DNA of 64,000 bases from an uncultured Clostridium sp. (GTDB lineage Bacteria; Bacillota; Clostridia; TANB77; CAG-508), in contig USFR01000003.1 in the NCBI GenBank assembly GCA_900553945.1, positions 22,568-86,567 of the forward strand. Direction: 5' to 3'. The stretch's first letter is position 1, and each line of letters opens with the position of its first letter. Below are positions 2,128-36,927 of the stretch, piece after piece. Made by a program: the position numbers and the translations under genes. The notes under the pieces are model-generated. The model was given only the letters and a program-made list of their open reading frames with translations, was not told where the DNA came from and searched no databases.

Positions 2128-2916
2128 GTGATAAAATTTAGTAAAGAAGGTGGAATGATTAAGCCAACAGGAATTAGAAAATTAGATGGAAAACATGATA
2201 TGAATTTAAGTTTACCTCATATTGCAATAGGAGTGCTTTCGGAATGTTTATTGAATGATATTGTTCAAAAGTTTTTATGTGAAAAGGTTGGTACACTTAG
2301 TTGTGCTAATTGTCAAAGACCGGTGTATATTATGAAATATAAGGATGTAAAATTTACATTATTTCTTGCAGGTGTAAGTGGACCTTGGATAAGTTCAGAT
2401 ATTGAACAATTAAATGTTCACGGAGTTGATACATTTATTATTTTTGGAAATTGTGGCGTATTGGATAAAAATATCGAAGATTGTTCAATAATAATTCCTA
2501 ATAAGGCTTTTAGAGATGAGGGAACAAGTTATCATTATATGACTGAGTCTGATTGGGTTGAGCTAAATCCAAAATATACAGATGTATTTAAACAAGTGCT
2601 TAAAGAAAATAATTATGAATTTGTTGAAGGTGCAACATGGACTACAGATGGCTTTTTTAGAGAAACGAGGGAGAAGGTTAAATATTTTAAAGAGCAAGGT
2701 GCTGTTTGTGTTGAGATGGAAGGTGCGTGTATTGCTGCTGTTTGTAAATATAAGAATTTAGATTATTTTACGTTTTATTATGCAGGGGACAATATGGATG
2801 CGGTTGAATGGGATGAAAGAAGTCTTAATCAATTAACTAGTTTTGAAAAGAAAAAATTGGTGCCTTATTTAGCGTTTGAATTGGCAAGAAAAATAAGTGA
2901 TATAAGAGGATGTTAA
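2128..2916 (+). CDS. PNP/UDP-family nucleoside phosphorylase (GTG start)
   Basis: 262 aa. FGNCG and VEMEGAC motifs typical of the purine/uridine nucleoside phosphorylase / MTA nucleosidase fold. RBS AAAGGAGAA upstream of GTG. Confidence 0.75.
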   Translation: MIKFSKEGGMIKPTGIRKLDGKHDMNLSLPHIAIGVLSECLLNDIVQKFLCEKVGTLSCANCQRPVYIMKYKDVKFTLFLAGVSGPWISSDIEQLNVHGVDTFIIFGNCGVLDKNIEDCSIIIPNKAFRDEGTSYHYMTESDWVELNPKYTDVFKQVLKENNYEFVEGATWTTDGFFRETREKVKYFKEQGAVCVEMEGACIAAVCKYKNLDYFTFYYAGDNMDAVEWDERSLNQLTSFEKKKLVPYLAFELARKISDIRGC

Positions 2917-3647
2917 GCTTGGAAGAGTTTGTTGAAATAAATGGAGAAAAAATATATTTTTTTGTTCAAAGAAAAAGAATAAAGAATTTGAATTTAAAAG
3001 TAAATGTTGATAAAACAGTGACATTGTCAATTCCAATGAGATTGTCAATGAATGTTGCTAAAGATTTTGTTAGAAAAAAGAGCGGTTGGATAAAGAAACA
3101 GCAAAATTTTTATGAGAGAGTTTTAAAAGAAAAAGAGAATTTGAAATTTGAAAATGATGAAACTGTGTATTTGCATGGAAAAAAGTATAAGTTGGAAATT
3201 ATAAAGAATACGGTAAATGGTGTTAATGTAAAGGATGACACTATTGAGATTTATGTGAAAGAAAAGTATGCAGATAATGCTGAATACATAAGTAGAGTAT
3301 ATGATAAATGGCTTAGAGAATATGCATTAGAAGTTTTTGAAAAAGTTGTTATTGAGTATCAAAAGATCTTAAAGGATTATGGGGTTAAGATGCCTAAAAT
3401 AGAGGTTAGAAAAACAAAGGCTATATGGGGAAGTTGTATGCCAATGAAAAATAAGGTTACGTTTAATTTGAATTTGATTAAAACGCCTATGGAATGTATT
3501 GAATATGTTGTTTTGCATGAATTATCTCATTTTAAATTTCAAAATCATAGTAAGAATTTTTACAATTTTATTGCTATGTTTATGCCTGATTGGAAAGAGA
3601 GAAAGAGAATACTGGATAAAGAGTATATTGGAATAGGAAGAAAGTAA
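2910..3647 (+). CDS. YgjP-like metal-dependent hydrolase (DUF45/M48-like, HExxH)
   Basis: 245 aa. C-terminal HELSHF zinc motif and overall YgjP/SprT-like architecture. 7-nt overlap with the upstream gene. Confidence 0.75.
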   Translation: MLSLEEFVEINGEKIYFFVQRKRIKNLNLKVNVDKTVTLSIPMRLSMNVAKDFVRKKSGWIKKQQNFYERVLKEKENLKFENDETVYLHGKKYKLEIIKNTVNGVNVKDDTIEIYVKEKYADNAEYISRVYDKWLREYALEVFEKVVIEYQKILKDYGVKMPKIEVRKTKAIWGSCMPMKNKVTFNLNLIKTPMECIEYVVLHELSHFKFQNHSKNFYNFIAMFMPDWKERKRILDKEYIGIGRK

Positions 3648-3651
3648 TGTT

Positions 3652-3684
3652 AAGAATGAGTATTTTTTACTCATTCTTTTTATA
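3652..3684 (+). terminator. rho-independent terminator
   Basis: AAGAATGAGTA / TACTCATTCTT hairpin followed by TTTTT. Confidence 0.7.
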
Positions 3685-3689
3685 TTTTA

Positions 3690-3816
3690 AAAGAACATTA
3701 TATTTTATTTTTGCATTCCTTGCTAAAAGATTTTACCGCCCACTAAACTTTGTTTAGCAGGCTAGGTAAAAACTTTCAAACTGCGCGTCATTGGAAAATA
3801 AAATATAATGTTCTTT
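3690..3816. repeat. Structured palindromic intergenic element of unknown function
   Basis: Perfect 20-bp inverted repeat AAGAACATTATATTTTATTT / AAATAAAATATAATGTTCTT encloses an 87-bp core. The core has a nested palindrome (CTTGCTAAA...TTTAGCAGG). Confidence 0.4.
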
Positions 3817-3925
3817 AATAAAAAAAGAATAATATACATAGATTTGCTTTTGCTCTAAAGGTTGCTTAATTGTGCAAATTTTGTTATAATGTGTTTGATT
3901 TTTACGAATTTTGGGAGAAGATTAA

Positions 3926-10924: not shown

Positions 10925-11001
10925 GCGCCTTTAGCTCAGTTGGTCAGAGCAACCGGCTCATAACCGGTGGGTCCAAGGTTCGAATCCTTGAAGGCGCACC
11001 A
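10925..11001 (+). tRNA. tRNA with CAU anticodon (most similar to tRNA-Ile2/lysidine type; could be elongator Met)
   Basis: 77 nt GCGCCUUUAGCUCAGUUGGUCAGAGCAACCGGCUCAUAACCGG...GGCGCACCA. Cloverleaf with anticodon loop CUCAUAA. Body closely resembles Firmicutes tRNA-Ile(LAU). Confidence 0.8.
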
Positions 11002-11005
11002 TCTT

Positions 11006-11091
11006 GGGTAGGTGGTCGAGTGGTTAATGGCACCAGACTGTAAATCTGGCGACGAGAGTCTACGATGGTTCGAATCCATCCCTGCCCACCA
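11006..11091 (+). tRNA. tRNA-Tyr (anticodon GUA)
   Basis: 86 nt class II tRNA. Acceptor GGGTAGG/CCTGCCC with a G-U pair, anticodon loop CUGUAAA, long variable arm, CCA encoded. Confidence 0.9.
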
Positions 11092-24213: not shown

Positions 24214-24239
24214 CATAAATTATAGTGAAGGGAGAAAAA

Positions 24240-25604
24240 ATGAAAAAATATAAGAAAAGTTTAATTATAGTTATAATTTTAGGCTGTTTATTGATTTTAA
24301 AGTGTTTAGCAGGAATAGTTATAAAAAATGAAAATTTAAATAATTCGATAGATGAAATGCAGAATGTAATTAATAATGAAATACAATTTTATGAAATGAC
24401 AGAAGAAGAAATTATAGAATTGAAGACTGCAGAGATTATTGAGCGAAACGAAATTGATGAACAAAATCTAGAACAAGAGGTAGAAGATGAAGGTTTCGAA
24501 TTGCAAGGAGATATTGCATACGAGGGTGATAAGGCTAGAAGTTGGAATGTGACATTGGGTAATTATAAAGGTTTAACTTATTATTCTCAAATTGATAATA
24601 GATGGAGAAATAAAAGATATTCATCTACAGGAAATGTATCTCAAACAATTGGTTCAAGTGGTTGTGGACCAACGAGTGCTAGTATGATTGTAACTGCTTG
24701 CAAAGGTGCAATAACTCCTGATGTAATGTCTGATTTGTTTGTGAAATATGGTTACAGAAGTGCTAATAATGGAACTTATTGGAGTGCATTTAGAGCAATA
24801 GCTGATGAATTTGACATTGGGTATTCTGAAACAACTAATTTTCAAAGAGCAATTGAGTTATTAAGAAATAATAATTATGTTGTGGCTTCTGTAGGAAATG
24901 GATTATTTACAACTGGAGGACATATTATTGTTTTAACTGGAATAGATGGAGATACTATAAAAATATATGATCCTTATTTATATGCTGGAAAATTTGAAAC
25001 AAGTACAAGAAGAGGAAAAGTAACAGTTGTAGGAAATACAGTGTATGTATCTGTACAAAATTTTAGAAATTATGCGAACGCAAAAGGTTTCTTTTGTTAT
25101 AAGCATGATGAAAATGTTCAAGAAAATAATATTAAGCCAGTAGTTGTACAGCCATATACAAGGTATGTTAAAGCAAATGGCGGTTTAAATATTAGAAGTT
25201 CACCTAATGGAAATAGAATTGGAGCAATAAGAAATGGCGAACAAATAACTGTTTATGAAACCTCAGGTAATTGGTCAAGAATAGGTGCTGGAAAGTGGGT
25301 TAGATCTGATTATTTAGTTAGTTCAACATCTAATTATACGAATAAGGAGAAAGGTGAAAAATATTCAGTAGGTGGATATAGAGTTACATCTAGTGTCCTT
25401 AATGTGAGAAATGGCCCTTCAACGAATTATAGTAGTAAAAGGTATTATCAACTTTCTTCTAATGCAAGACTTCAAAATCGTAGATTGGGTGGAGAATGTA
25501 ATGGATATAGAAGAGGTGTTGTTTTTACAGTTTCAAAAATTATAAACAATTGGGGATATTCACCAAGTGGTTGGGTATGTTTGGATTATTGTTATAAATA
25601 TTAA
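24240..25604 (+). CDS. Secreted C39-like papain-fold cysteine peptidase with C-terminal SH3b domains (putative cell-wall hydrolase)
   Basis: Signal peptide/TM at N-terminus. GSSGCGPTSASM catalytic-Cys region and GGHIIVLTG His region. C-terminal SH3_3-like repeats (GLNIRSSPNG...). Confidence 0.65.
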   Translation: MKKYKKSLIIVIILGCLLILKCLAGIVIKNENLNNSIDEMQNVINNEIQFYEMTEEEIIELKTAEIIERNEIDEQNLEQEVEDEGFELQGDIAYEGDKARSWNVTLGNYKGLTYYSQIDNRWRNKRYSSTGNVSQTIGSSGCGPTSASMIVTACKGAITPDVMSDLFVKYGYRSANNGTYWSAFRAIADEFDIGYSETTNFQRAIELLRNNNYVVASVGNGLFTTGGHIIVLTGIDGDTIKIYDPYLYAGKFETSTRRGKVTVVGNTVYVSVQNFRNYANAKGFFCYKHDENVQENNIKPVVVQPYTRYVKANGGLNIRSSPNGNRIGAIRNGEQITVYETSGNWSRIGAGKWVRSDYLVSSTSNYTNKEKGEKYSVGGYRVTSSVLNVRNGPSTNYSSKRYYQLSSNARLQNRRLGGECNGYRRGVVFTVSKIINNWGYSPSGWVCLDYCYKY

Positions 25605-25610
25605 TAAAGA

Positions 25611-25643
25611 AGCAGGAGAAACAATTTGTTTTTTCTGCTTTTT
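25611..25643 (+). terminator. rho-independent terminator immediately preceding the intron
   Basis: AGCAGGAGAAACAA/TTGTTTTTTCTGCT hairpin followed by TTTT. The intron 5' end starts right after it. Confidence 0.7.
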
Positions 25644-27530
25644 GTGTGCGACAGGCATGTCGTTTAGCTAATCGGTGAGAGCCCGTATTGGAGGTATATA
25701 TCGCCAACCAATTAGAGAAACACAAGCTATCCATCGTGAGGTGGAAGTGGAGGAAGTGTGTATCAAAATCATGGCTCGATGTACAAAAACTTGATATTAA
25801 GGCTATGCAAGAGGGGAAGACTGCACAACAAGTCAAAGCCCAAAAGATATACGTAACCTTGTATAGTAAATCAAGCGAGTAAATGAGGAAAGTTAAACGG
25901 CTTACCCTGTGAGGTCTTGTGAGCATAGAGTAGTTAGGAAACGACGAGGAGTACATAGAATGAAGTATGGTCGAAAAAGGTTTATCACAAGAAGTCAGCA
26001 GAGGTCATAGTAGGAAAAATTTTTTTTTCGAAGGACTGAACAATTTGTAGTGTTTTCACTACCGAAAAATTTAGTGATAGATAATAGTTAGAATGTGTTA
26101 ATGAGGAGAGTATGAGCGTATCTCAGAGGGTTACTCAAAATCCAATATTTTATCTATCTACGGAAAGAAAAAGAGGAAACAGATATGGAACTTTTAGAAG
26201 AAATTCTTAATCAAAACAATTTAAACAAGGCATACAAGAAAGTTGTAGCAAACAAAGGTGAAGCAGGAGCTGATGGGATAACAGTAGAAGAAGAATTTGA
26301 TTACTTAAAAGAAAACAAAGACAGAATAATAAACCAAATAAGAAAAAGAAAATATAAACCGCAACCTGTGAAAAGAGTCCAAATACCAAAAGAAAATGGT
26401 AAAATGAGAAATCTAGGAATACCAACAGTGACAGATAGAATAATACAACAAGCAATATCTCAAGTAATAAGCCCAATTTTTGAAAAGCAATTTAATGATA
26501 ATAGTTTTGGATTTAGACCTAATAGAAGCTGTGAACAAGCAGTAATTAGGGCATTGGAATATTTGAATGATGGATATGAATGGATAGTGGACATTGACTT
26601 AGAAAAATTTTTCGACACAGTAAATCAAGATAAATTAATAACAATAATAGGAAAGACAATAGCTGATGGAGATGTGGTGTCATTAATTAGAAAATATCTA
26701 AGTGCAGGAGTAATGGAAAAAGGAATAGTTAAAGCAACAACAGTAGGAACACCACAAGGAGGAAATCTAAGCCCATTATTAAGTAATATAATGTTAAATG
26801 AACTAGATAAAGAACTTGAGGCAAGAGGACTAAACTTTGTAAGATATGCTGATGACTGTATAATACTTGTTAAAAGTGAAAAAGCAGCAAACCGAGTTTT
26901 GGCATCAATAACAAAATTTATTGAAAAGAAACTAGGATTAAAAGTAAATGCAGAAAAGAGCAAGGTAACAAGACCAACACAAACGAAATACTTAGGATTT
27001 AGTTTTTGGAAAAGTCCAAAAGGACAATGGAAACCAAAACCACACCTAAAATCATATCAAAAACTAGTAAGAAAACTAAAACAGTTAACCGATAGAAGTT
27101 TGAGTATTAGCTTAGATAATAGAATTAAGAAAATAAATTATGTTGTTAGAGGTTGGGTAAATTACTTTAGAATAGCAAATATGAAAAATAAAATCACTGA
27201 AATTGATGAACACCTAAGGGTAAGAATAAGAGTTATAATTTGGAAACAATGGAAAAAGATACGTAAGAAATGTGAAAGCTTACAAAAATTAGGAGTCCCA
27301 TTTGAAATAGCATTTAATTGTGCAAATACAAGAAAAGGTTATTATCAAATATGCAAAACTAGATATATACAGTTTGCAATAAATAATGAAAGATTAAGAA
27401 AAAGAGGTCTAGTATTCCTACTAGACCAATATGAAAAAGTTCATATTTAATATAAATTGAACCGCCACTTGCGAGAACCGCTTGAGTGGTGGTGAGAGAG
27501 GGGAAAAACACACTAAGTGTTATCCTCTAC
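25644..27530 (+). mobile_element. Group II intron (bacterial class C-like)
   Basis: 5' GUGUGCG/GUGCG at 25644-25650, directly after a terminator U-tract. About 540 bp of structured RNA comes before the IEP ORF in domain IV. A domain V/VI-like hairpin region follows the ORF (27455-27530), ending ...TATCCTCTAC. Confidence 0.8.
26185..27450 (+). CDS. Group II intron reverse transcriptase/maturase (no endonuclease domain)
   Basis: 421 aa. RT motifs RNLGIPTVTDRIIQQA, FGFRPNRSCEQA, GTPQGGNLSPLLSN and YADD. Maturase X domain RGWVNYF. Ends without an HNH/En domain. Confidence 0.9.
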   Translation: MELLEEILNQNNLNKAYKKVVANKGEAGADGITVEEEFDYLKENKDRIINQIRKRKYKPQPVKRVQIPKENGKMRNLGIPTVTDRIIQQAISQVISPIFEKQFNDNSFGFRPNRSCEQAVIRALEYLNDGYEWIVDIDLEKFFDTVNQDKLITIIGKTIADGDVVSLIRKYLSAGVMEKGIVKATTVGTPQGGNLSPLLSNIMLNELDKELEARGLNFVRYADDCIILVKSEKAANRVLASITKFIEKKLGLKVNAEKSKVTRPTQTKYLGFSFWKSPKGQWKPKPHLKSYQKLVRKLKQLTDRSLSISLDNRIKKINYVVRGWVNYFRIANMKNKITEIDEHLRVRIRVIIWKQWKKIRKKCESLQKLGVPFEIAFNCANTRKGYYQICKTRYIQFAINNERLRKRGLVFLLDQYEKVHI

Positions 27531-27635
27531 TCGATTTGAATTAATAAAGAAGTATATATATAATTTTAATAAAAGTTGAACCAAATTAAAAGATGTATCG
27601 TCTAATGGGTAAGAATATAGAAAGGATTAAAAAAA

Positions 27636-28133
27636 ATGAGTATTGAATTAAATAGTTTTACAAATCTTATAGAGGAAAATAAGCTTAGATTTTATAAAAC
27701 TGCTAAAGCAATATTAAAAAACGATGATGATGTTTATGATGCATTGCAAGAAGCTTTAATGAGTATTTATCAGAATTTTAGGCAATTAAAAGATTTGAAA
27801 TTTTTCTCAACATGGGCTACAAGAATTGTAATTAATAAATGCTATGATTTATTAAGAAAAAATAAGAATAATATTGTTCCTTTTGATGAAAGTATGGAAA
27901 ATAATCTTAATAATTCAAGAAATGATGTTTATGATATTGATCAATATGGAATAAGACTAGCGATAGAAAGCTTAAATGAAGATTTGAAATTAATTACTAT
28001 TCTTTACTATTATGATGATTATTCTGTAAATGAAATTTCAGAAATAGTTGATATTCCGGTAGGAACTGTGAAATCAAGGTTATCACGTGCTAGAGAATTT
28101 TTGAAAAATAAATTAGGAAAGGAGGAGTTTTAA
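27636..28133 (+). CDS. ECF-like sigma-70 family RNA polymerase sigma factor
   Basis: 165 aa. Region 2 (ALQEALMSIYQNF...FSTWATRIVINKCYDLLRK). Region 4 HTH (YSVNEISEIVDIPVGTVKSRLSRAREFL). Confidence 0.8.
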   Translation: MSIELNSFTNLIEENKLRFYKTAKAILKNDDDVYDALQEALMSIYQNFRQLKDLKFFSTWATRIVINKCYDLLRKNKNNIVPFDESMENNLNNSRNDVYDIDQYGIRLAIESLNEDLKLITILYYYDDYSVNEISEIVDIPVGTVKSRLSRAREFLKNKLGKEEF

Positions 28134-28134
28134 A

Positions 28135-29682
28135 ATGAAAGATGAAGAATTTGATAAATTGTTAAAAAAACAAATGAAATCGGATACATACATTCCAGAA
28201 AAAATAGATAAGCTTTTTTCTGATTTTGGAAAAAATAAAATTGATGATAATCATAAGGTATATAAGTTTAGACGATATCTAAAATCTGTATCAATTGCTG
28301 CATGTGCTATGTTGGTAATTTTTGTAGGAGGTTGCACATATGCTCATGTTAATGGAACAAAAACAATTATTTCACCTATATTGAGTAAATTAGGTATTAA
28401 TAGTAAGTATGAAGAAAATTCAACTAAATTTAATGATGAGGTTGTTAGTGAAAATGTTAAGATTAAATTAAAAGATGGGGCAATTGATGATACTACATTG
28501 ATTTTAGGATACGAAATAGAGATTGCTAATAGTAATCCCGATATATGGCTTGAAATAATTGGCGAGTATGAAATTAATGGAATGAATTTTGAACCAGTAA
28601 ATTCTACAGTTGATAAGATTTCTGATGGTGAATATGTTTATTATCAAGTATTTGATGTTAGTGAGATTATGATTGATAATCCAGAAAATGTTTATATAAG
28701 TTCGAAGATTTCTGAAATTAAAGAATATACTGAATGTGAGAATGAAAATTCTGCTTATCCTGTTTATGGAGATAGTTTGAAAGGTGAATGGAATTTTGAT
28801 GAGTCTATATCAGTTAAAAATTTAGAAGAAAATAAAAAATATGAATTTAATAATCCTCAAAAGTATGAAATTGCTGAAAATGTTAATGTGTCTGTTGCTG
28901 AATTTATAAAAGGTTCATATACTAATATTTTAAAAATTAAGGTGGATAAAACTAATTACACTGGAGATGATTTTGAGAAATATTATAAAGTTCTTGATGA
29001 TAAAAATAATGAGATCGCTATGTATAATGAAGAACAGAGAGAATATGATGATAGAGTATATAATGATAGGTTAGTTAGTGAGAAGATTAAAGAAAATTCT
29101 AAAATTAAGATGGAAATATATTTTAAGGAAAGTGGTAAAAAAGAATTTAATAAGGTAATAACTATTCCTATTGATTTATCAAAAGCTATAGAGAAGATTG
29201 AAAGCAAAGATGAATGGAAAGAATATGATGGGGATGATTATGGTTTTAAATATAACTCTAATTGGAAGGTTACTACTAATCTTGGAAAAGATAAACTTGG
29301 AGAAAATAGTATATATTTAGGAGCACTTGGAATAGAGATTCCTTCTACTACAAATTCTGAATATACTTCATCTATATATGTAAAAACTGTTAATAAGGAT
29401 ATTACATTGGATGAGTATGCAGAGGAAAGAAGAGAGATAAATAATAGTTCTGAATCAGGAGGATATAATGAAATTGAAAATGCAATGCTTAATCTAAAAA
29501 ATAATGAGGGATATCAAATAATTTATGAAACTTCTGATGGTTCTGAAAAATATATTTATGAAAATGTGTTTATAAAGGGTGAAGGAAAAATTTATGATAT
29601 AAGTTTTTTTGGTAGTGATAAGGAGTATAATAATTTAAAAAGTGCTATTAATAAATTTATTAATAGTTTTGAAATAAAATAA
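28135..29682 (+). CDS. Putative membrane-anchored anti-sigma factor (DUF4179-like)
   Basis: 515 aa. Starts 2 nt after the sigma factor stop. Short cytoplasmic N-terminus, single TM (SVSIAACAMLVIFVGG), large extracytoplasmic domain. Confidence 0.55.
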   Translation: MKDEEFDKLLKKQMKSDTYIPEKIDKLFSDFGKNKIDDNHKVYKFRRYLKSVSIAACAMLVIFVGGCTYAHVNGTKTIISPILSKLGINSKYEENSTKFNDEVVSENVKIKLKDGAIDDTTLILGYEIEIANSNPDIWLEIIGEYEINGMNFEPVNSTVDKISDGEYVYYQVFDVSEIMIDNPENVYISSKISEIKEYTECENENSAYPVYGDSLKGEWNFDESISVKNLEENKKYEFNNPQKYEIAENVNVSVAEFIKGSYTNILKIKVDKTNYTGDDFEKYYKVLDDKNNEIAMYNEEQREYDDRVYNDRLVSEKIKENSKIKMEIYFKESGKKEFNKVITIPIDLSKAIEKIESKDEWKEYDGDDYGFKYNSNWKVTTNLGKDKLGENSIYLGALGIEIPSTTNSEYTSSIYVKTVNKDITLDEYAEERREINNSSESGGYNEIENAMLNLKNNEGYQIIYETSDGSEKYIYENVFIKGEGKIYDISFFGSDKEYNNLKSAINKFINSFEIK

Positions 29683-35235: not shown

Positions 35236-35465
35236 AAAAAATACATGGTAGGTGAGGCCAGTATAGGGATACGGGTTACTACCGCAAACTAGTGGAGACA
35301 CTACGCGCCGGTTAACAGAGAATGTCGATTCAAGGCATGCTTTAATGTGATTTCATTGCCCTATAACGCTGAAGCTTGTACGGTATATGAAATGTGGTTT
35401 AGGTTAATAATTATATTAATTTAAGTTCTTATTACTGTGCAAGCACGTAATAAGAACTTTTTTTG
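35236..35465 (+). promoter_or_regulatory. M-box (ykoK) Mg2+ riboswitch with terminator expression platform
   Basis: GGTAGGTGAGGC...GTATAGGGATACG...TACCGCAAA...GTTAACAGA...TATAACGCTGAAGCT conserved M-box blocks. Followed by terminator AAGTTCTTATTACGTG.../...CACGTAATAAGAACTT + TTTTTT. mgtE lies downstream. Confidence 0.8.
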
Positions 35466-35595: not shown

Positions 35596-36927
35596 ATGGT
35601 AGAAAAATTACAAGAATTATTAGAACAAAAGAAGTATGCGGAGATTCATAAAATGTTAGAAAGTTTGAATAGTGCTGATATCCCGAGTATTTTTGATGAA
35701 CTTGATGAAGAACAAATTGTGATTGTCTATCGTTTATTATCAAAGGATATGGCAGCTGATGTTTTTGTTGAACTTGACCCTGATATGCAAGAGAATTTAA
35801 TTAATGCTTTTTCAGATAAAGAATTAAAAAATGTGCTTGATGATATTTTTATGGATGATACAGTTGATTTGGTTGAAGAGATGCCTGCTAGTGTTGTTAA
35901 GCGTATTTTGAGGGCACAAAATTCTGAAGATAGAAAGATGATTAATGAATTGTTGAGATATCCAGAAGATAGTGCTGGAAGTATTATGACAACTGAGTTT
36001 GTGGATTTAAAAGAAAATATGACAGTTGAAAAGGCTATTGAGAAAATTAGAAAAGTTGGTGATGATGTTGAAAGTATATATGTTTGTTATGTGCTTACAT
36101 TGACAAGACAACTTATTGGAATTGTTTCTTTAAAAGATTTAATTATGGCAGATAAGGTTACTTTAGTAAAGGATATTATGGATAAGAACTTTATTAAGGT
36201 ATCTACTTTGGAGGAACAAGAAGAGGTTGCAAAGAAATTTGATAAGTATGATGAAATTTCTTTACCAGTTGTTGATAATGAAGATCGTTTAGTTGGAATT
36301 GTAACAGTTGATGATGCTATGGATGTTATGCATGAGGAAATGGATGAAGATTTTGAGAAGATGGCTGCTATTACTCCAAGTGAAGATACGTATTTTAAGA
36401 CGAGTGTTTTCAAGCATGCTCGTAATAGAATTTTCTGGTTATTAGTTTTAATGATTTCTGCAACAGTTACAGGAGGAGTTATTACTAAATATGAAGATGC
36501 TTTTGCTGCTATTCCGTTGCTTGTTGCATTTTTACCTATGGTTATGGGGACTGGTGGAAACTGTGGATCACAAAGTTCTACATTAATTATAAGAGGTTTA
36601 GCAAATGATGAAATTAAATTAAAAGATTTCTTTAAAGCTTGGTGGAAAGAAGTTAGAGTTGCATTTTTAGTTGGAATTGCATTATTTATTGCAAATTACA
36701 TTAGAATTATGATACAATACAATAACTTACATTTAGCAATCATTGTTGGTTGCACATTAATGGGAACAGTTACTATTGCGAAATCTTTAGGTTGTATATT
36801 ACCTATGATAGCTAAGAAGTTAAAAATGGATCCAGCAATAATGGCTGCACCATTAATAAGTACAATATTAGATACTTGTTCAGTATTTATTTATTTTAAT
36901 GTTGCTACTTTGGTAATGGGGTTGTAG
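35596..36927 (+). CDS. mgtE: Magnesium transporter MgtE
   Basis: 443 aa. MgtE N-domain, CBS pair, C-terminal MgtE TM domain (PMVMGTGGNCGSQS). Confidence 0.9.
   Translation: MVEKLQELLEQKKYAEIHKMLESLNSADIPSIFDELDEEQIVIVYRLLSKDMAADVFVELDPDMQENLINAFSDKELKNVLDDIFMDDTVDLVEEMPASVVKRILRAQNSEDRKMINELLRYPEDSAGSIMTTEFVDLKENMTVEKAIEKIRKVGDDVESIYVCYVLTLTRQLIGIVSLKDLIMADKVTLVKDIMDKNFIKVSTLEEQEEVAKKFDKYDEISLPVVDNEDRLVGIVTVDDAMDVMHEEMDEDFEKMAAITPSEDTYFKTSVFKHARNRIFWLLVLMISATVTGGVITKYEDAFAAIPLLVAFLPMVMGTGGNCGSQSSTLIIRGLANDEIKLKDFFKAWWKEVRVAFLVGIALFIANYIRIMIQYNNLHLAIIVGCTLMGTVTIAKSLGCILPMIAKKLKMDPAIMAAPLISTILDTCSVFIYFNVATLVMGL

Follow-up and report, generated by a model that had tools for sequence, protein, structure and literature searches.

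What occupies the space between the gene for a C39/SH3 protein and that for an extracytoplasmic function (ECF)-type sigma factor in an uncultured Clostridium sp.? The window analysed here, a stretch of 64,000 nucleotides (nt) of contig USFR01000003.1 (assembly GCA_900553945.1), carries at this point a reverse transcriptase (RT) gene, which an initial annotation made from the letters alone took to be part of a class C group II intron. We are highly confident that positions 25646..27535 are a complete class C (IIC) group II intron retroelement, lying behind the terminator hairpin of the C39/SH3 gene and before the putative promoter of the ECF sigma-factor gene. The element has exact boundaries, ribozyme domains I–III, V and VI, an intact class C RT/maturase without an endonuclease, a pairing between exon-binding site 1 (EBS1) of the intron and intron-binding site 1 (IBS1) of the exon, and a T at position +1 of the 3′ exon. 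The intron, its parts and the genes flanking it all lie on the + strand.

Where does the intron begin and end? We gathered filled and empty alleles by an exact-sequence look-up of the downstream sigma-factor protein, which returned contigs of the same species. The end of the C39/SH3 gene and the sigma gene lie 141 nt apart in the intron-less contigs and 2031 nt apart in the window, the spacing thus being larger by 1890 nt. Seven intron-less alleles were read (L012, L013, L014, L015, L016, L018 and L019). The empty site of L015 is ...CTGCTTTTTGT|TTGAATTAATAAAG... (junction CTGCTTTTTGT|TTGAATTAAT) and that of the other six is ...CTGCTTTTTGG|TTGAATT..., while the filled window reads ...CTGCTTTTTGT-GTGCGAC...CTACTCGAT-TTGAATT.... 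The empty site thus sets the ends of a 1890-nt intron, 5′ GUGCGAC ... CUACUCGAU 3′, and both of these ends, GUGCG (5′) and GAU (3′, within CUCGAU), are kept in the relatives. In formal terms the boundary could be moved by one T; its placement is settled by the GUGYG consensus and by the relatives. The initial annotation had the ends right in substance. It set the 5′ end at GUGUG, position 25644, 2 nt ahead of the real G25646, and stopped at 27530, which the intron-less alleles place 5 nt short of the real end, T27535. The position from which it started the element, 25611, is part of the hairpin in the 5′ exon and is not intron sequence.

A perfect 13-nt repeat, ATTAATAAAGAAG, brackets the hairpin (window 25600-25612 and 27540-27552; L015 3856-3868 and 3906-3918). 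It occurs only twice in the window, against 0.07 occurrences expected. We considered this direct repeat as a target-site duplication, or as the trace of a joint movement of hairpin and intron, and rejected both, for the two copies are already found in the intron-less alleles, 50 nt apart. It follows that the intron is not the source of the repeat, which could have arisen by an old duplication or by insertion of a terminator unit.

What does the intron sit behind? The 5′ exon consists of the 3′ end of the C39/SH3 gene and its terminator hairpin. This terminator-like hairpin (25611..25639) starts 7 nt past the stop codon; its arms are AGCAGGAGAAACAA (25611-25624) and TTGTTTTTTCTGCT (25626-25639), with a G-C core at 25612-25638 and a 3-nt loop. 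Folded as RNA, it reaches a minimum free energy (MFE) of -22.8 kcal/mol (z = -5.1; none of 200 shuffles matched this), and as single-stranded DNA -8.0 kcal/mol (z = -3.0). It is followed by a T run at 25639-25643 and by the string GTGTGCG at 25644-25650; counted from the stem's last G-C pair, the intron starts after 7 nt, and counted from the T run, after 2 nt. The hairpin is unique in the window and is identical in the intron-less alleles. The hairpin and T-tract described in the initial annotation are therefore present, and the fold goes well beyond that of shuffled sequence.

Do the relatives of the intron choose their sites in the same way? A protein scan with one genome per species yielded 80 loci carrying relatives of 60-99% identity, from genomes of uncultured Clostridia and Bacilli assembled from metagenomes. 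Among these loci, 39 distinct 5′ flanks extend at least 50 nt upstream. Each of the 39 forms a hairpin whose end lies 0-7 nt before the intron, in most cases with a T run behind it. Their mean MFE is -15.1 kcal/mol, as against -4.4 kcal/mol for 1127 control 50-mers from the same loci (Mann-Whitney p = 7e-25), and 90% of the target flanks fall below the 5th percentile of the control MFE. The association of intron and hairpin is non-random. The targeting of terminator stems, proposed from a single site, holds at that site and at each of the 39 distinct related ones examined.

How is the insertion point itself recognised? An alignment of the family's loops identifies an EBS1 hairpin, GACU-GCACAACA-AGUC, at 25819..25834. 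Its EBS1, ACAA (25825-25828), is preceded by C25824 (the site of delta in Eubacterium rectale), and is complementary to IBS1, the TTGT that forms the last four bases of the 5′ exon (25642..25645). For 27 distinct combinations of intron and site, we set the four loop bases against those of the exon. Pairs are formed in 100% of them at position -1, in 89% at -2, in 89% at -3 and in 52% at -4. In all, 89 of 108 cells are paired, as compared with 53.8 ± 4.3 when the loops are shuffled among sites, and none of 10000 shuffles scored as high. We conclude that EBS1 (ACAA) and IBS1 (UUGU) form a 4-bp pairing that covaries across the family. The stem-loop stands where IBS2 would be expected in the 5′ exon.

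On the 3′ side, the junctions of the relatives point to the first base of the 3′ exon, T27536 (27536..27536), as the putative IBS3; among 45 related 3′ junctions, 42 have a T there. The motif AGUAAA at 25865-25870 likely holds EBS3, the candidate base being the A at the position expected from A231 of the E. rectale (E.r.) intron. Of 47 aligned related sequences, 46 have the motif unchanged, and the one that does not, L024, is internally deleted. Covariation is uninformative for EBS3, since AGUAAA does not vary among the full-length relatives; L031, the one relative with both an A at +1 and 5′ data, keeps it too.

Is the RNA that surrounds the RT gene a ribozyme? Rfam model group-II-D1D4-3 (RF02001) matches the domain I core at 25730..25900 (129.4 bits, E = 2.4e-26, gathering score 32) and group-II-D1D4-1 (RF01998) matches the domain II/III region at 25974..26036 (48.2 bits, gathering score 35). 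Within domain I, the class C bulge motif AGGAA (25751-25755) falls in an unpaired stretch, where the Rfam consensus has AGGAA as well. At the other end of the element, 27448-27535 folds into two hairpins (-34.7 kcal/mol, z = -6.3). The former of these is domain V (27461..27493), composed of a 10-bp basal stem and a 3-bp distal stem, with UU bulged at 27482-27483 and AGAAC as the loop. Its CGC triad lies at 27463-27465, G27464 pairing with U27490 as a wobble. The latter is domain VI (27496..27532). Its bulged A27529 sits 7 nt from the 3′ end, the position of a putative branch point, and this A and the three pairs below the bulge are conserved in the relatives.

The two hairpins also covary. A MAFFT alignment (A1) was made from the 3′-terminal 80 nt of 35 distinct relatives. 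Over domains V and VI 98.3% of cells are paired and 11 pairs have changed on both sides; the covariation score of 0.342 compares with 0.131 ± 0.010 after shuffling (0 of 500 as high) and with at most 0.077 when the partners are slid. Domain V alone shows compensatory change in 6 of 13 pairs, with 98% of cells paired. A covariance model built from this alignment (R1) finds domains V and VI in 40 further or more distant loci, and in a second alignment (A2), of 42 distinct and more distant sequences, 100% of the domain V cells are paired and 7 pairs are compensatory. The UU bulge and AGAAC loop mark a clade that comprises the window, L020-L022, L025-L027, L050, L051 and L088. In place of these, nearly all the remaining relatives carry AC in the bulge and (C)GAAC in the loop, and the adjoining stem has changed in a compensatory way; in the basal stem, the window clade has ACU/AGU where most relatives have GUA/UAC.

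Some relatives are degenerate. L024 (1444 nt), L054 and L055 (both 1635 nt) are internally deleted and have truncated open reading frames (ORFs). In L053 (1850-2500) a 5′-truncated copy lies directly behind domains I-III of another intron, in a nested or tandem arrangement.

What does the intron encode? An ORF in domain IV (26185..27450) specifies a protein of 421 residues with a YADD active site. About 540 nt without a long ORF separate it from the GTGTGCG string, and it is followed by a G+C-richer stretch of about 85 nt. Pfam finds RVT_1 (67-273), GIIM (292-362) and nothing else; the protein comprises RT, X/thumb and C-terminal DNA-binding regions, and an endonuclease domain finds neither a match nor room in it. 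It scores 434.5 bits against NCBIfam TIGR04416, ‘group II intron reverse transcriptase/maturase’ (cut-off 300). This score and the Rfam matches to domains I-IV bear out the group II reading. The best match of known structure is 7UIM_D, the class C protein of E. rectale (E = 2.5e-154), where residues 3-417 align with 6-421 of 427. Further solved matches are the RT fragments 5HHJ (Roseburia intestinalis) and 5HHL (E. rectale), and the GsI-IIC RT 6AR1 (E = 9.8e-115). An intron-encoded protein with RT and X domains and no endonuclease had been predicted, and the two Pfam domains together with the end-to-end alignment to the E. rectale protein agree with this.

Has the intron moved recently? The identical sigma protein is encoded on 23 contigs, of which about 10 have the intron and about 12 lack it. 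Copies at this locus from independent metagenomes differ at 0-2 of 1890 bases. A second site (L106-L108), reached via P0003, a protein of the same 90% cluster, carries an intron that is 99.2% identical; it lies behind a different hairpin, AAAGACCTTTTACAAGGTCTTTTTTGT|GTGCG..., and has the same EBS1, a TTGT|T junction and a T at +1. Further copies stand at yet other sites (L020, 97.8% identical; L022, 96%). Given the presence/absence polymorphism and the near-identical copies behind different terminators, the intron appears to have been mobile recently at the level of the population. The suggestion that it is probably retro-mobile thus gains from the precise empty site, from the polymorphism and from the copy behind another terminator.

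Several contigs start 2-4 nt before the intron (L020, L023, L028 and L039) or inside it (L005, L006, L009, L017, L102 and L105). Contig breaks of this kind are typical of a repeated element in short-read assemblies, and hint at multiple copies per community or genome. In a plasmid collection, Bacillus plasmids match 82-85% of the intron at about 68% nucleotide identity, and there are two short matches at 90-95%; a phage collection gave one weak match only.

Several points weigh against this interpretation. Rfam and covariance-model scans found no second copy within the 64-kb window, so that a search for copies behind terminators, as the initial annotation had proposed, failed within the window and succeeded elsewhere, at L106-L108. 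The copy there may come from another species, and every contig with the exact protein represents the same locus. A simple terminator scan did not list the hairpin at 25611-25639, likely because the stem is made longer by pairing of the T run with the AAGAAG upstream; that the hairpin terminates transcription is a prediction from its fold and T run. The Rfam family for domains V and VI, RF00029, has no match in 25550-27650 even at E<=10. A missing domain V hit had been named beforehand as the outcome that would speak against an intron. Domain V is nonetheless present, because the fold and the covariation support it: domains V and VI are there, and the Rfam model misses this class C lineage. Its UU bulge, in place of AC, is presumably compatible with catalysis, to judge from the spread of the clade. 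Finally, we infer the steps of the life cycle considered below (splicing, branching, read-through and fork priming) from the biology of the class C family (PMC1702495, PMC10190682, PMC4424553).

If the element is a group II intron, need it be one of class C, and need the RT belong to an intron at all? Several bacterial classes lack the endonuclease domain, so that its absence alone leaves the class unsettled (PMC4424553); the element might then be an endonuclease-less intron of class D, E or F, or an unusual IIB, with the hairpin there by coincidence, or else a class C-attC intron at an integron attC site. Class C introns are small, have CGC in place of AGC, have a domain V distal stem shorter by 2 bp and an 11-nt bulge (epsilon-prime region) with a conserved AGGAA, pair IBS1 with EBS1 over 3-4 bp and have an EBS3 as in IIB (PMC1702495, Toor 2006). 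All class C proteins are without endonuclease, and insertion is after terminators or at attC sites (PMC4424553, Zimmerly and Semper 2015). The CGC triad, the 3-bp distal stem, the AGGAA and the 3-4 bp of IBS1-EBS1 pairing are all found here. The protein is about three times closer in bit score to class C RTs (517, 406 and 387 bits to the solved ones) than to those of IIA (LtrA, 159) or IIB (T.el4h, 152), and the hairpins at 39 of 39 related sites leave little to coincidence. As for attC, the intron follows a perfect hairpin with a T run right after a stop codon, and there is no integrase among the five neighbouring proteins scanned with Pfam. We regard another class, or the attC subclass, as very improbable, and the original assignment to class C agrees with protein and RNA alike. 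It is hardly credible that the RT should be that of a retron or of a defence system (DRT, Abi), or a domesticated group-II-like enzyme, without a functional intron RNA. The protein does match retron and DRT models and structures weakly, as any RT does, but its scores are far under the cut-offs (retron St85, 81.5 versus 235; Drt3a, 62.8 versus 200; AbiA, 28.6 versus 250), while TIGR04416 is passed. The ribozyme domains that flank the ORF on both sides, and the 1890-nt unit precisely missing from the empty sites, exclude this candidate, which had been put forward at the outset as the second way in which the intron reading could fail.

Might the intron be real, but now an immobile relic at this locus, its polymorphism being due to homologous recombination of whole alleles or to precise loss? 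The empty alleles L013 (over 4 kb) and L018 (over 1.56 kb) are 100% identical to the window downstream, yet the 612 bp just upstream are only 98.7% identical. In four empty strains (L012, L013, L016 and L018) the C39/SH3 gene (about 3296-3859) has an internal deletion of about 650 bp, which leaves an SH3-only ORF of 187 residues. In L014 the ORF is split (2808-3859); in the intron-bearing strains and in L015 it is intact, at 454-459 residues. Such mosaic identity suggests an exchange of alleles. Because of the difference between upstream and downstream identity and the deletion in the empty strains, whole-allele exchange by homologous recombination has probably shuffled this locus. The confinement of the exact protein to one locus would also suit a relic. 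However, the ORF with its YADD is intact, as are domains V and VI, and copies at the locus differ at no more than 2 of 1890 positions. The 99.2% copy has the same EBS1 and TTGT|T behind a different terminator, and copies of 96-98% identity occupy further sites. Nor are recombination from strain to strain and an origin by retrotransposition mutually exclusive. We therefore think it unlikely, if worth keeping in mind, that the intron is a relic here; recent mobility of a class C intron is the reading that we carry forward.

Might the empty strains be immune? At exon position -1 every filled allele has T, as does L015, and six of the seven empty alleles read (L012-L014, L016, L018 and L019) have G. 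A G at -1 would break the very EBS1 pair that is kept in 100% of the related introns. One could imagine that this T/G difference is a natural target-immunity polymorphism, the G strains being refractory at this site, and, jointly with this, that the presence of the intron could change read-through into the ECF sigma gene. L015, with T and empty, is more diverged overall (98.6-99.1%) than the G alleles L013 and L018. Since the T allele is thus not the closest haplotype to the filled one, the immunity idea stays speculative, and we rate the combined proposal a long shot.

What is the setting of the intron? It is intergenic, as had been reported, between the stop codon of the upstream host gene (24225..25604; 459 residues, Peptidase_C39_2 and SH3_3) and the downstream host gene for the ECF-type sigma-70 factor (27636..28133), in sense orientation. 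A gene for a DUF4179 protein (28135..29682) comes next. A consensus scan picks out a putative promoter, TTGAAT-17-TATAAT, at 27536..27564 (10 of 12 matches). It starts at base 1 of the 3′ exon, which would place the intron right at the border of the terminator with the putative -35 box that serves the ECF sigma/DUF4179 pair. The five neighbouring proteins scanned with Pfam include an HD protein, the C39/SH3 protein, the ECF sigma factor and the DUF4179 protein. Elsewhere in the window there are an M-box (magnesium) riboswitch (35237-35392, 96 bits) upstream of a gene for an mgtE magnesium transporter (35596-36927; TIGR00400, 486 bits) and three tRNA genes (1865-1936, 10925-10998 and 11006-11088). 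These surroundings are an ordinary chromosomal context, in a gut-type host whose G+C content is low (about 29%).

How might such an element live? The consensus scan found no promoter-like site on the + strand from the end of the C39/SH3 gene to the intron ORF, and for this reason the intron is probably expressed by read-through of the terminator, which would transcribe it. The protein would bind domain IVa, aid the splicing of the RNA and stay on the excised molecule. The resulting ribonucleoprotein would recognise the stem-loop of a terminator in single-stranded DNA, partly by its shape and partly by IBS1 (4 bp) and IBS3 (1 bp) (PMC10190682, Chung 2022), and would reverse-splice behind it. 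In default of an endonuclease, the cDNA would be primed from the nascent strand at the replication fork (PMC4424553). The GC skew of the + strand is positive throughout the window (+0.23 to +0.39) and 42 of its 44 long ORFs are on that strand; from this, the intron would lie in the strand with the sequence of the leading strand, that is, in the template of the lagging strand, as would fit priming at the fork. The element would then be a selfish resident in a harmless spot, and the population pattern indicates recent activity.

What follows from this? The fitting annotation for positions 25646..27535 is a single mobile class C intron and not a free-standing RT gene, with the upstream hairpin as its target. 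A missing Rfam domain V match is an unsafe criterion for rejection; screens that require RF00029 would overlook the class C lineage found here. The natural pair of filled and empty alleles, with T or G at -1, could be used to probe the IBS1 requirement in vivo. Beyond annotation the significance is small. As class C introns go, it is a textbook case. Already known are the family, its target rule and the atomic structure of one relative, and the lineage is at most a new member; its peculiarities, the UU bulge in domain V and the miss by the Rfam domain V model, are minor.

How, then, does the intron compare with those already described? Class C introns on plasmids of Bacillus thuringiensis, annotated ‘ltrA: group II intron reverse transcriptase/maturase’, share about 68% identity with it, in different hosts and at different sites. 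The protein of GsI-IIC, from Geobacillus stearothermophilus (6AR1), aligns from end to end, and is more distant than the E. rectale/R. intestinalis group. B.h.I1 of Bacillus halodurans is reportedly the intron with which Toor in 2006 and Robart in 2007 defined 5′ exon recognition in class C. It inserts 3-11 nt after an intrinsic terminator's stem-loop, the distance in the window being 7 nt (PMC1702495). The two have in common the 3-4 bp of IBS1-EBS1 pairing, a stem-loop at the position expected for IBS2, the CGC triad, the short distal stem, the AGGAA, an ORF of about 1.3 kb in domain IV and several copies behind different terminators. B.h.I1 belongs to a different lineage, and its splicing and the contribution of its stem-loop were tested in vitro, whereas the window intron is known from its sequence.

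The closest comparison is with the E.r. IIC intron, whose structure has been solved (7UIM/7UIN; Marathon RT 5HHL), while the window copy is so far a matter of sequence alone. They differ in several points: EBS1 is ACAA in the window and AAAG in E. rectale, the domain V bulge of the window is UU, and the protein is of a different lineage, with most but not all positions matching. The layout of RT, thumb and DNA-binding regions without an endonuclease is the same in the E. rectale protein, in the R. intestinalis RT (5HHJ) and in that of the window. In the E.r. intron, the EBS1 loop resolved by cryo-electron microscopy, C183-AAAG-A188, has the same arrangement of C, four nucleotides and A as that of the window (PMC10190682). 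Its IBS3, a dT, pairs with A231, and the putative IBS3 of the window is likewise a T. It targets a stem-loop with a short spacer behind it (PMC10190682), just as at the site described here.

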